This document shows, one piece after another, positions 60,476 to 64,000 of a DNA stretch of 64,000 nucleotides. Made by a program: the position numbers and the translations under genes. The notes beneath the pieces were generated by a model that worked only from the letters and a program-made list of their open reading frames with translations, was not told where the DNA came from and did not search any database. The stretch's first letter is position 1. Each line of letters opens with the position of its first letter. Origin of the DNA: Chthoniobacterales bacterium (GTDB lineage: Bacteria; Verrucomicrobiota; Verrucomicrobiia; Chthoniobacterales; Chthoniobacteraceae); the NCBI GenBank assembly GCA_038207335.1, contig JBBQZX010000019.1:48681-112680 (forward strand), given 5' to 3'.

Positions 60476-60621
60476 TCACTCCTTGGCGTGAACCTCGGCG
60501 CCTTTCTCCACGAACTCCTTCGACTTATCCGCCATCCCCTTCGCCAGCGCCTCTTCCTCGGAGATCGCTTGTTCGGTGGCATATTTTCGGACGTCTTCGG
60601 TGATTTTCATCGAGCAGAAGC
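60476..60621 (-). repeat. Diverged copy of the thiC 3' end (copy 4)
   Basis: Translates [47 protein letters not shown]. Confidence 0.95.
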
Positions 60622-60634
60622 GCGTGCTTCGGGG

Positions 60635-60834
60635 CTACTCAGCCGCTTTGGCTTGCTCGAACAGACTGTCCACCGTTTCCCCGGCGAAGAGTTGGTCACG
60701 AGTCTTCACGTGATCGCCGGTGCCGACTTGGAGTGTGGCGAGCAGCCGGGCGACTTTGGACGCGGGCATCTTTTCCGAAAGAATGGCGGTGGCTTCCTCG
60801 ATGGTGGCGAGTTCGTGATCGACGCGATGCTCAT
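60635..60834 (-). pseudogene. Small antitoxin-like gene with a 1-nt deletion near the start
   Basis: ATG overlaps the MazF stop (ATGA); MSIASI[frameshift]ELATIEEATAILSEKMPASKVARLL...LFAGETVDSLFEQAKAAE*; 200 nt long. Confidence 0.55.
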
Positions 60835-61175
60835 CGCTGGGACGGTGACTTGAAAATGTCGCGCGCTTTGGAGAGGACTTCGGCGAGCTTGGCGGGGAGA
60901 ACTTTCCCCGTGGAGTGGAGGATGACGCGCTGCTCGATCGTGAAGAGCCGTTGAGGGCGAATGAAGCTCGATTGACTGAGCTGCCCGCGTGCAAAATCGG
61001 TGGCGTCGAGCGGGATGGAGAAGCCGTCAGAACGTGCGCGGCTGGTAATCTGGCAGAGGATGAGATCGTCACCCGGCAAATCGACGTGCACCAAAGCAGG
61101 GCGGCGTTTTCCGACGACCTGGTCGGTCTGCGGAAACGGGATGATGACGATCTCGCCTGCTACAAGTTTGCCCAT
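60831..61175 (-). CDS. PemK/MazF-family toxin
   Basis: GEIVIIPFP...KRRPALV, LCQITS. Confidence 0.9.
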   Translation of the reverse strand: MGKLVAGEIVIIPFPQTDQVVGKRRPALVHVDLPGDDLILCQITSRARSDGFSIPLDATDFARGQLSQSSFIRPQRLFTIEQRVILHSTGKVLPAKLAEVLSKARDIFKSPSQR

Positions 61176-61354
61176 GCCGCGTCCTCTTCGGGCGTATTCC
61201 AATCGGTTGCGAGAACGGATTCGCTCAACGCCGCACCATTGAAGGCTTCGTCGCCTGCTTTTTGCCGAAGGAAGACAGCGAAATCATAAACCTCACGTTG
61301 CAAGGGCTCAGGCAAGGCGGCGATTTCCTTTTCGATCAACTCTTGCGTGTTCAT
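61160..61354 (-). CDS. DUF2281-like antitoxin
   Basis: LPEPLQREVYDFAVFL...LSESVLATDWNTPEEDAAW; overlaps the MazF start. Confidence 0.8.
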   Translation of the reverse strand: MNTQELIEKEIAALPEPLQREVYDFAVFLRQKAGDEAFNGAALSESVLATDWNTPEEDAAWANL

Positions 61355-61372
61355 ACGGCGGTTATCGCACAC

Positions 61373-61603
61373 TCACGCCTTCCCGCAAACCTCCGCGCCC
61401 TTTTCCACAAACTCCTTCGACTTCTCCTCCATCCCTTTCGCCAGAGCTTCTTCTGAGATTGCTTGTTCGGCGGCGTATTTGCGGACGTCTTCGGTGATGT
61501 CGACGACGCTGCGGCCCCGCAGCATCGCCCTTTGGGCTGACCGGCGGTGAGTCTGTCTCAGCCCGCCCGCTCGCGGGCCTCGGCTCATCGAGTAGAAGTG
61601 CGG
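61373..61603 (-). repeat. Diverged copy of the thiC 3' end (copy 3), interrupted by an 84-bp insert
   Basis: PHFYSM[insert][41 protein letters not shown]. Confidence 0.95.
61501..61584 (-). mobile_element. 84-bp multi-hairpin miniature insertion (copy B)
   Basis: Absent from native thiC (atga^aaatc); starts gccgag; hairpins gcccgc/gcgggc, gccc-aaa-gggc, gatgctgcg/cgcagcgtc. Confidence 0.75.
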
Positions 61604-61611
61604 CTCGGATC

Positions 61612-61941
61612 TCATGCGACCTGAAGCTTCGCCGTGACGTATCGAGTGCGGTCGAGAATCGAATTAGCCGCCTCCACGGGCACGAGTTTGATCAGTTCGC
61701 GAATGCTAAACTCCTGCTGACCTACGACCTCGATTCCGAGGACCCTTCCTTCCGCGTCGAAGTCGAGCATCACGAAACCATCCTCGGAACCAAATGGCTC
61801 GGTGCGGGCAACTTTTCCCTCCCGGAGGCGGATATAGGCGGCGGTCGCCTCCGTATCGATCTCGACCACCGGCGGCTCGGTGATGGTGATGACGAACCCG
61901 TGAGGGTCAGTTCCAGTATCAGGTGATGATCCAGCACTCAT
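61612..61941 (-). CDS. DUF2283-family putative antitoxin
   Basis: DTEATAAYIRL..GKVART...LDFDAEGRVLGIEV; start uncertain. Confidence 0.75.
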   Translation of the reverse strand: MSAGSSPDTGTDPHGFVITITEPPVVEIDTEATAAYIRLREGKVARTEPFGSEDGFVMLDFDAEGRVLGIEVVGQQEFSIRELIKLVPVEAANSILDRTRYVTAKLQVA

Positions 61942-62045
61942 GCAGTTTGATTTCGGCGACTACGACAAGAGTCCTATCCTCGAATACTCGGAAGAACAAC
62001 CACAGCATGCTGCCATGATTTCCCCAGCGCGGTGAAGGGGAAAGG
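61907..62045 (-). pseudogene. Remnant of a DUF4258-like toxin gene upstream of DUF2283
   Basis: ...WLFFRVFEDRTLVVVAEIKLHECWIIT*YWN*: typical C-terminal 'IIT-x-Y' with an in-frame TGA at 61919-61921; no N-terminus. Confidence 0.5.
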
Positions 62046-62070
62046 AATGCGAGTCACTATGCCGAACAAC

Positions 62071-62325: not shown

Positions 62326-62524
62326 GGGCCTTCCGACGCTCGGCGAGATAGTCTTTCATCGGACGAAACGAAAGCGGCTTGGTGCGTGCCTCTTTCAGAT
62401 AGGCAACGTCTTCGGCATCTTCCAATCGTTCGAGCAGCTCCTCATACTCCTTGATGGGGATGATCACCGAGACGGGCTTGCCCTTTCTGGTGATGATCTC
62501 GGGTTCGGCGAACGCAGCTTTCAT
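62318..62524 (-). CDS. Phd/YefM-family antitoxin
   Basis: IITRKGKPVSVIIPIKEYEELLERLED; overlaps relE. Confidence 0.88.
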   Translation of the reverse strand: MKAAFAEPEIITRKGKPVSVIIPIKEYEELLERLEDAEDVAYLKEARTKPLSFRPMKDYLAERRKARV

Positions 62525-62582
62525 GGGCGGAGGATACCTGACTTAAGCCTTCGCGTAAACCTCTGCGCCTTTCTCCACAAAT

Positions 62583-62662
62583 TGACTCGGTTGCTCCCAC
62601 AGCCTCGGCCTGCGGCCGTCTGCTTCGCAAAAGTCTTCTCGCTCGCCTCCCGGCGGCTCGAA
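62583..62662 (-). mobile_element. 80-bp multi-hairpin miniature insertion (copy C)
   Basis: aagga|ttcgagc...ccgagtca|atttgtg; hairpins cgcc-ggga-ggcg, tgc-gaa-gca, ggcc-gca-ggcc. Confidence 0.8.
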
Positions 62663-62674
62663 TCCTTCGACTTT

Positions 62675-62737
62675 TGACTCCGCTGCGCTCCGCCCTCTCG
62701 GGCAATGCTCCGCATTGTCCATCGCGCTACGCTCGGT
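62675..62737 (-). mobile_element. 63-bp multi-hairpin miniature insertion (copy D)
   Basis: gagga|accgagc...cggagtca|aaagtcg; hairpins gc-gta-gc, caatgc-gga-gcattg, gccc-gaga-gggc, gc-gca-gc. Confidence 0.8.
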
Positions 62738-62796
62738 TCCTCCATCCCTCTCGCCAGCGCGGCTTCTTCGATGTTCTCTTTCAAGGGTGACGAGCC

Positions 62797-63558
62797 TTAT
62801 GGGCGATTCCCGCGCGCTTCGGCAAGTCGCATGGCTTCCAACTCCCGCTTGAGTGGTTCCCAATAGGTGCGGTCTTTTGACATTTCCTCTCGCACCTCGG
62901 CATCCAGTGCCGCGGCGAGGGCATCGCGGTCGAGGGATTGCGCGGCGTTAAGCAGGGGGCGGCGAGGTGAGAGGATGTGCGCTTCTGTCGGGAATCGGCG
63001 GATGAGTTCCAAGAGCAGCTCGGGAGATCGACCTTCGAGGAGCCAGAATTCGATCCAGTCCGCGCGCGGCGCGTCGGCATTCTCGCGATAGTGGATGTTC
63101 ACGAGCAAGTCGATCACCGGCCAGTCCCGGCTCCGCTGCGTCTTTTTTGCCTGAACGAGATCGGGGATGCAGAGGAGATCGAAGATCATGCCGGTGTCGT
63201 CGGCGAATGACGTGCGGCGATCCCACAGCACGTCGAAGGGCGGCAGGTCGCGGAGCCGGACCATCACATCCACTCGCAGTTCCTCGACGCCAGCGGCGGA
63301 GCAACGGAAGTGAACGGCGTGGCCGCGTTCGAGGGCTGGAACATCGAAGGGCGGCACCGCGATGCGCCGGGCATCGAGTGCGCTCATGGCGGCGAGGAGC
63401 CGCTCGTAATTTGCGGAGTCGGCGAGGAGGACGAGATCGATGTCCTTGCTAACCTGCGCCGCGCCGTAAAACACGCAGGCCTGCCCGCCCATGAGCAAAG
63501 CCTGGACGCCATTCGTCCGGAGCGTAGAAAGGACTTGTCGGATCGGGGTCGGGATCAA
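62797..63558 (-). CDS. Pol-beta-superfamily nucleotidyltransferase-like protein (putative toxin/Abi-like)
   Basis: LMGGQAC..YG...SKDIDL (GG...DxD), VDVM, LVQAKKTQRSRDW; TTG start assumed. Confidence 0.75.
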   Translation of the reverse strand: MIPTPIRQVLSTLRTNGVQALLMGGQACVFYGAAQVSKDIDLVLLADSANYERLLAAMSALDARRIAVPPFDVPALERGHAVHFRCSAAGVEELRVDVMVRLRDLPPFDVLWDRRTSFADDTGMIFDLLCIPDLVQAKKTQRSRDWPVIDLLVNIHYRENADAPRADWIEFWLLEGRSPELLLELIRRFPTEAHILSPRRPLLNAAQSLDRDALAAALDAEVREEMSKDRTYWEPLKRELEAMRLAEARGNRP

Positions 63559-63673
63559 GGCTGCCTCCCATCGCCAGATAGTTGGCAAAAATCTTTTCGC
63601 TCTCGCGGAAGCGTTCGATCGGCGTGAGCGCGAGCCAATCCTTCCATTCGCCGGGAAGTTCCTCGTAGGTCAT
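63449..63673 (-). CDS. Small hypothetical protein overlapping the nucleotidyltransferase gene (putative partner/antitoxin)
   Basis: MTYEELPGEWKDWLALTPIERFRES...GGSLDPDPDPTSPF; 59 nt downstream of the thiC stop. Confidence 0.6.
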   Translation of the reverse strand: MTYEELPGEWKDWLALTPIERFRESEKIFANYLAMGGSLDPDPDPTSPFYAPDEWRPGFAHGRAGLRVLRRGAG

Positions 63674-63732
63674 GGGGTTCCATTTAGCAGCATCCGGGCA
63701 TCGGTCCAAGGTGAGTTATCAGGGCCGTCGGT

Positions 63733-64000
63733 TCACGCCTTCGCGTATAGCTCGCTGCCTTTTTCGGCGAACTCCTTCGACTTCTCCTCCATACCTTTCG
63801 CGAGGGCTTCCTGTTCGGAGATGGCCTGTTCGGCGGCATATTTGCGGACGTCTTCGGTGATTTTCATCGAGCAGAAGTGCGGGCCGCACATGCTGCAGAA
63901 GTGGGCGGTTTTGGCACCTTCCTGCGGGAGGGTTTCGTCGTGGAATTCGCGGGCGCGCTCGGGGTCGAGGCCGAGGTTGAACTGGTCTTCCCAGCGGAAT
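63733..64000 (-). CDS. thiC: Phosphomethylpyrimidine synthase, C-terminal 88 codons (5' part outside the window)
   Basis: [25 protein letters not shown]...[16 protein letters not shown] (CX2CX4C [4Fe-4S] motif)...YAKA*. Confidence 0.96.

Follow-up and report, generated by a model that had tools for sequence, protein, structure and literature searches.

The 3′ end of thiC, a gene of vitamin B1 synthesis, occurs four times on the minus strand in a 64,000-nt stretch of DNA (the window; positions 48,681 to 112,680 of contig JBBQZX010000019.1, assembly GCA_038207335.1) from a bacterium of the order Chthoniobacterales, in which these ends, or tails, form the boundaries of gene cassettes arranged in an array (Table 1). 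The genome under study is designated G000 and its contigs carry C-numbers, that of the window being C19 (PEP-CTERM-like proteins suggest the phylum Verrucomicrobiota); other G-numbers denote the genomes of relatives, and negative positions, such as −135, are nucleotides counted back from the thiC stop codon. The four tails derive from once-working thiC genes, and the spare, displaced ones are decaying. On the whole, it is probable that such tails travel with the cassettes and act as handles for homologous recombination, no dedicated recombinase being involved.

Tails, cassettes and mini-elements in the window

The four tails are real and differ mostly at synonymous sites, as an earlier note on this DNA had claimed: over the six pairwise comparisons, with inserts excluded before counting, 68 of 105 differences fall at third codon positions. 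The pooled ratio of nonsynonymous to synonymous substitution rates (dN/dS) is 0.12 (0.04–0.16 in single pairs), which is not near 1 and is the same as among working genes (0.118 between resident tails), so the copies descend from once-working thiC, and each tail has evolved under protein-level selection in some genome, as the note supposed. The codons quoted there match copies 1, 3 and 4; copy 2 is not continuous as quoted, beginning 84 nt before the stop and being interrupted twice, by 63 and by 80 nt of inserted sequence. In copy 3, 84 nt are inserted behind the PHFxSM codons and 3 nt are deleted. Across relatives, displaced copies are altered at near-invariant residues in 94 of 1065 codons versus 16 of 1576 in resident tails, with a slight contribution from junction edges, and small frameshifts outnumber in-frame insertions and deletions in them (16 versus 6).

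Could the copies have arisen by local duplication of the genome's own thiC end, followed by drift? This is very improbable, because drift predicts a dN/dS near 1, the closest relatives of three of the four window copies belong to other genera, and the inserts are common to other genera and absent elsewhere in G000. The six G000 copies, whose tails are 75–89% identical, do not form the clade by which the note would have recognized such duplication: the tree requires six changes (origins), and they come together in 0% of 200 bootstrap trees. The approximately unbiased (AU) test, run like the tree on 135 columns, nevertheless does not reject a single G000 clade (p 0.12–0.17), and the nearest resident tail of copy 2 is that of the genome's own complete gene on C38.

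The three inserts belong to one family of hairpin mini-elements of 63–90 nt, with three to four hairpins and a target after GA and before A. In their stems, 10 of 11 tested pairs have changed on both sides, a count inflated by related sequences. A profile built without the window copies returned the three window inserts as its top three matches in G000, followed by two weak partial matches. Intact elements in G000 are confined to tail copies 2 and 3, at sites occupied in up to six other genomes; at one tail site, the element is found in seven genomes. As these sites are common to other genera and the element is otherwise absent intact from G000, the tails appear to have been hit elsewhere and imported dead; copies 2 and 3 likely entered G000 in that state, riding with their cassettes. 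Dispersed copies outside tails are present in G034, G039 and G061, with at least five in tandem in G061 (L132), and the family comprises, besides the window inserts, loci L036, L038, L052, L084, L089, L090, L094, L096, L097, L116, L119 and L126–L139. No Rfam match was obtained for the family, nor any above threshold for positions 57200–64000, and no transposase was recognized for it. GTAG/CGTC repetitive extragenic palindromes, taken as a comparison class from the cited part of PMC3733652, are abundant tagged single stem-loops; the present elements differ from them, with three to four hairpins and three clear copies in G000.

Among the cassettes, the one nearest the contig end (cassette A) is likely an AbiEii-type nucleotidyltransferase pair, judging from Atlas neighbours named AbiEii/AbiGii; its proteins have no Pfam or NCBIfam match.

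Table 1. Components of the array and its downstream boundary, from the contig end inwards
Feature	Positions in the window	Strand	Remarks
thiC 3′ piece, last 88 codons, AEKGSEL type	63733–64000	minus	cut by the contig end; not a complete gene
Cassette A: small gene and protein of about 250 amino acids	62797–63673	minus	homologues adjoin thiC tails in G094, G141, G111, G031, G152, G034
Displaced tail copy 2 (−84 to stop), two inserts	62543–62769	minus	
Hairpin mini-element 1, 63-nt insert with flanking bases	62675–62739	minus	same site in G031, G034
Hairpin mini-element 2, 80-nt insert, frame-shifting	62583–62664	minus	same site in G031, G108, G145
Phd/YefM antitoxin (62318–62524) and ParE toxin (62071–62325)	62071–62524	minus	Pfam; homologues behind tails in 7 relatives
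DUF2283 gene	61612–61941	minus	76% homologue with tail piece at C35:9166-9582
Displaced tail copy 3, 84-nt insert, 3-nt deletion	61373–61615	minus	
Hairpin mini-element 3	61501–61586	minus	same site in G061, G092, G108, G111, G123, G128
DUF2281 antitoxin-like gene (61160–61354) and PemK/MazF toxin (60831–61175)	60831–61354	minus	94% copy behind tail at C50 end
Small unknown gene, start displaced by 1-nt loss	60635–60835	minus	same junction with copy 4 in G021
Displaced tail copy 4 (−152 to stop)	60476–60627	minus	
Last cassette: unknown protein of 152 amino acids (59950–60408) and Ser/Thr kinase (58900–59937), defence-kinase-like	58900–60408	minus	
IS200-like Y1 transposase (58135–58590) between inverted repeats	58033–58872	minus	
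Weak partial mini-element match, distal array end	57554–57609	minus	E 0.28
rpoA, downstream boundary of the array	56189–57199	minus	

The contig-end piece and the complete thiC

The copy regarded as native in the earlier note is the last 268 nt of C19, and because the window stops at the end of this contig, only these 268 nt are in the assembly. The sole complete thiC of G000, with its upstream leader, lies at C38:16897-18861 and carries a tail of the VEKGAEV type, which does not bear out the proposal that AEKGSEL was the current gene's newest import. The displaced copies do share VEKGAEV, as had been said; the contrast drawn with the current gene was wrong. VEKGAEV is simply the majority type, borne by 24 of 45 resident tails, and its sharing is therefore uninformative on the order of arrival. 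The C19-end piece is 92% identical to the C38 gene over 264 nt, has novel residues at 0 of 41 codons, and clusters with a G125 tail. It could be a long fragment of recent origin, the terminus of an imported second thiC, or a minority-strain gene joined on by the assembler, and under none of these three readings is it the resident gene's newest tail. Long displaced fragments occur elsewhere, reaching back to −292 and −321 in G111 and G173.

The minority-strain reading can be extended to the array, whose arrangement would then be for the most part a chimera of assembly, in which co-occurring strains or species were fused at cassettes common to them. In sequencing run X1, positions 63542–63868 have a depth of 4.3 versus 13–14 for the rest of the array, and the letters at 63503–63512 disagree with every X1 contig covering them; moreover, C50 ends in a 94% copy of a window cassette, and eight other assemblies break within thiC, at −255 to −381. 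However, a single 2.1-kb X1 contig of genome depth covers copy 2 and the start of copy 3, relatives such as G031, G054 and G111 have similarly built arrays inside long contigs, and chimerism would touch ~500 nt at the contig end, and perhaps a single join, rather than the array type, all of which makes a largely chimeric array highly unlikely. Runs X2–X4 gave short related pieces only; the C38 arrangement appears to be represented in X1 by a joint of depth 15.4.

The window array sits away from the thiC locus, as congener synteny and a gene on C50 indicate. In four of five congeners, thiC is absent upstream of rpoA, and likewise in four of five an isomerase gene directly precedes rpoA; its G000 homologue lies at C50:6556-7650, followed by another tail and the 94% copy of the DUF2281/PemK cassette, inside which the contig ends. 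Joining C19 and C38 into one gene was considered and rejected, the exact match at the C19 end being only 12 nt and congener synteny favouring C50, and rpsK was discarded as the upstream neighbour of the array, being internal to C3.

Some observations concern the complete gene itself. Its 5′ part groups with other genera and not with the congeners G004–G007, in a codon alignment whose 5′ part is disturbed by the frameshifted assemblies G008, G033, G061 and G162 and for which four loci gave no full frame. Behind it lie an AAA ATPase cassette, AriAB-like and in two frames (C38:18940-20506), and a Y1 transposase with the same inverted repeats as in the window (C38:20512-21530, 95% alike). G147, too, carries two thiC 3′ parts that differ, each on its own contig (L082, L083).

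Arrays, junctions and exchange of tails in relatives

A family-wide search of 151 genomes, with five candidates scored per genome, found at least two tail matches in 40. A phylum-wide DNA search gave matches in 37 of 201 genomes, only three of them with at least two, and sets no limit on the distribution, as a DNA query loses sensitivity with distance. Loci were read in 63 genomes, 30 of which yielded displaced pieces, 56 in total. Five of the six modules of the window are also found next to tails in other genera, in different orders, and the cargo of arrays in relatives comprises toxin-antitoxin, HEPN/nucleotidyltransferase, restriction and ATPase genes, Mrr and YhcG nucleases included. In relatives such as G111, G013, G031 and G054, 3′ fragments are strung behind an intact thiC, while the window contig ends inside its first piece; clearly separate from thiC, tail pieces are also present in G014, G033, G034, G054 and G087. 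In G061 (L096:3060-4260), a 5′-truncated group II intron, with reverse transcriptase and terminal domains, begins inside a displaced tail, a situation seen in no other tail. Five other long frames of G000, at C2:6986, C4:169717, C12:107595, C24:73375 and C31:64736, have a nearby downstream copy of their last 50–110 nt and are possible further anchors.

The 5′ junction with the following tail is common to copies behind the same cassette and different among cassettes; this cassette-specific junction stays fixed. The BLAST starts of 36 of the 56 pieces fall at −161 to −128, and junctions overall span about −128 to −321. CCC precedes ATG at 5 of the 10 junctions at −135/−137. In 10 of the 56 pieces, the upstream frame terminates within ATGA, where its stop overlaps the Met codon of the tail at −135, and such tails may be translated as coupling peptides.

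The earlier note had also regarded the downstream copies as former tails of the lineage, stacked by age: each cassette would come in at the resident thiC by homology-facilitated illegitimate recombination and bring a donor tail with it. The overlap of the upstream TGA with the Met codon at −135 in those 10 pieces is a plausible microhomology, and the same mechanism has been proposed for immunity arrays of Vibrio in the cited part of PMC5361080. Displaced tails also lean to their own resident, at an identity of 0.824 versus 0.776 in permutations (p 0.0005, kin not being independent); the own resident ranks first among about 55 in 7 of 36 cases and in the top five in 16, with several near last, giving two modes. 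However, identical junctions and insert sites in different genera indicate spread by descent and not a fresh illegitimate joint each time, the complete thiC lies elsewhere, and no clear age gradient is seen, novel residues numbering 31 of 631 in first copies and 32 of 436 in later ones (p 0.11). With imported inserts, and with the nearest copy the most broken, stacking of G000's own tails by age is not upheld for the window, and as a general explanation it is unlikely.

Replacement of a resident tail by a donor tail arriving with its cassette, a further element of that proposal, is visible in one clear case, G122, and not for the window gene. In G122, thiC departs from that of the congener G123 only over the final 150 nt, with a foreign tail from about −115, and this tail and the downstream gene are shared with G008, another genus; tail and cargo were replaced together, which also accords with stacking by age. 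Recombination tests on 45 nucleotide sequences of full thiC revealed a partner switch in four of eight triplets, at −115 (G122), −319 (G005), −343 (G153) and −460 (G013). A breakpoint near the CSMCGPHFC codons, as the note had asked to look for, was found in one of the 10 genes tested, and three others break at −319 to −460. A hybrid is seen in G141, whose copy has the upstream junction of G140 and G142, while its last 54 nt match a G125 tail at 52 positions, together with the downstream cassette. Single close pairs clearly show tail halves linked to the cassettes that flank them. The thiC genes of G008 (L045) and G162 (L102), two genera, are 97–100% alike over the last 1350 nt between unrelated flanks, which, judged from sequence, is a recent transfer of a housekeeping gene.

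None of the integrase, resolvase, HNH, LAGLIDADG and GIY-YIG families was detected among 144 array open reading frames (ORFs), those from arrays of relatives included and many lacking any family match. The absence of these families agrees with the alternative to a dedicated recombinase that the note had allowed, and homing-endonuclease drive was rejected, no HNH, LAGLIDADG or GIY-YIG match being present. The competence genes comEC and dprA are present in G000, as in most control genomes. An enzyme encoded elsewhere might act in trans: a site-specific recombinase or nuclease whose target is the conserved thiC stretch, or else the hairpin element, and which inserts circular cassettes. The genome has 10 PF00589 tyrosine-recombinase matches, none on C19, C35, C38 or C50; the piece starts cluster at −161 to −128; hairpin pairing is kept despite sequence change, and one tail site is occupied in seven genomes. 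Such an enzyme is nonetheless improbable, since junctions scatter over about −128 to −321 and breakpoints over −115 to −460, most junctions have no hairpin element, the element also occurs in unrelated places in G034, G039 and G061, and no such enzyme family is found in the arrays.

Homologous exchange through travelling tails remains our preferred explanation, and several points weigh against it. Neither a recombination event nor a circle nor DNA uptake is observed in assembled contigs, from which exchange is deduced, and the 75–89% identity of the G000 tails is low for RecA to exchange 130 nt efficiently. Four of the eight breakpoint triplets are not significant, and p values are inflated, partners having been chosen as nearest neighbours. 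Pooled linkage of tail and cassette is weak (in the last three bins, 0.73/0.75/0.84 for pairs with shared downstream genes and 0.69/0.73/0.83 for the background), and cassette A is found behind tails of several types. The 30 of 63 genomes with displaced pieces are not a frequency, as loci were picked by best match or copy number. Displaced copies contain one stop codon against 108 novel residues, where 5–8% would be expected, a scarcity hinting at some selection for open frames. Finally, an unrecognized enzyme may be among the many family-less array ORFs.

Proposed course and comparison with known systems

The preferred explanation, of tails as handles for homologous exchange, can be laid out in four steps. 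In a rare birth, foreign DNA anchored in thiC would be joined illegitimately back into thiC, mostly 130–160 nt before the stop and near the end of the conserved stretch, leaving a junction that is fixed for that cassette. As the mosaics suggest, a cassette with tails on both sides could then enter any genome having a similar tail, with two crossovers if it comes as linear DNA and with one if it comes as a circle that was cut out between a pair of tails. The upstream tail would gain donor sequence, and the downstream copy would become a hybrid of a cassette-borne 5′ part and a recipient 3′ part. Spare tails subsequently decay and collect mini-elements, as the displaced copies show. Blocks of tails and cassettes would, probably through shared cargo, reach other gene ends, and the window array may be one of these blocks, or two strain variants joined together, between the isomerase gene and rpoA. 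A bolder and rather unlikely extension holds that the thiC end serves the whole family as a cassette platform needing no recombinase, its tail being kept near-uniform across genera by constant exchange and the four-hairpin element being an aid to single-strand recombination and not a passenger; if true, any defence gene trapped behind a thiC tail could circulate through a whole community.

Targeted literature searches, mostly without subscription papers, did not find a description of such arrays at thiC. Toxin-antitoxin islands have reportedly been described at guaA, dmpI and glnA ends in betaproteobacteria, a report that the literature searches did not find and that could lower the novelty.

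Several known systems resemble the arrays in part, and they are taken here as the cited portions of the papers describe them. Displacement of rhs C-termini (Jackson et al. 2009, PMC2935791) likewise leaves strings of 3′ fragments behind an intact gene, with no integrase, and homologous recombination via circles, limited by sequence distance, has been proposed for it. In rhs, however, the swapped tip is the payload, variable and non-homologous, whereas the thiC tail is a conserved, interchangeable end, homologous among copies at a dN/dS of 0.12, with unrelated, separate genes behind it as payload; thiC-tail blocks, moreover, also occur away from their anchor gene. Effector-immunity arrays of the type VI secretion system in Vibrio cholerae (Kirchberger et al. 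2017, PMC5361080) share a rare, homology-facilitated illegitimate birth and frequent homologous spread, but there the anchor is toxin machinery and the effector is lost, while at thiC a housekeeping end is duplicated and exchange crosses genera. Insertion of restriction-modification genes with long target duplication (Furuta et al. 2010, PMC2853133) is similar in its small defence inserts, below 20 kb, with direct repeats above 30 bp and no mobility genes. Its repeats are ~46 bp long and 94–100% alike and flank R and M genes, in contrast to the thiC repeats, which measure 130–300 nt, are 75–89% alike, coding-derived and stacked, and enclose toxin-antitoxin and kinase genes in the window.

Prophage e14 in icd, with its icdC pseudogene (PMC13626634), also has a displaced C-terminal copy that flanks the insert and can recombine back. 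It is a 15-kb prophage with site-specific excision, an integrase inside the element and one fixed crossover core, unlike the thiC cassettes of about 1 kb, which encode no integrase and have junctions at −128 to −321 and breakpoints at −115 to −460; incoming DNA has supplied a working replacement end at thiC in one clear case (G122). In the tandem lpl cluster (Tsuru and Kobayashi 2008, PMC2568036), the unit likewise consists of a 3′ part, a spacer and the next 5′ part, with crossover in a conserved core, although what is repeated there is the entire paralogous gene, and no foreign cargo is carried. Integrons have IntI beside the array; PF00589 is absent from C19, C35, C38 and C50 and from the 144 ORFs. 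The arrays thus fall outside integrons, e14-type elements and rhs proper.

Integrase-free hotspots of horizontal gene transfer, supplied through recombination in the core genes that flank them (Oliveira et al. 2017, PMC5635113), share gene turnover beside a core gene and a mosaic flanking gene; the model for them requires two such core genes within a species, whereas at thiC the duplicated end provides the other handle and makes stacking possible. An integrase is lacking in many hotspots of gene acquisition, and their route of gain was left open in the cited part of that paper. The arrays offer a concrete, testable route, in which a duplicated gene end is a reusable handle and toxin-antitoxin and defence genes could stack and cross genera by host recombination alone; dead tails and their inserts could in addition be used as tags to trace transfers. 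Tip displacement, illegitimate birth and homologous spread are already known from the systems above, and what appears new is their use on thiC, a gene of vitamin B1 synthesis.

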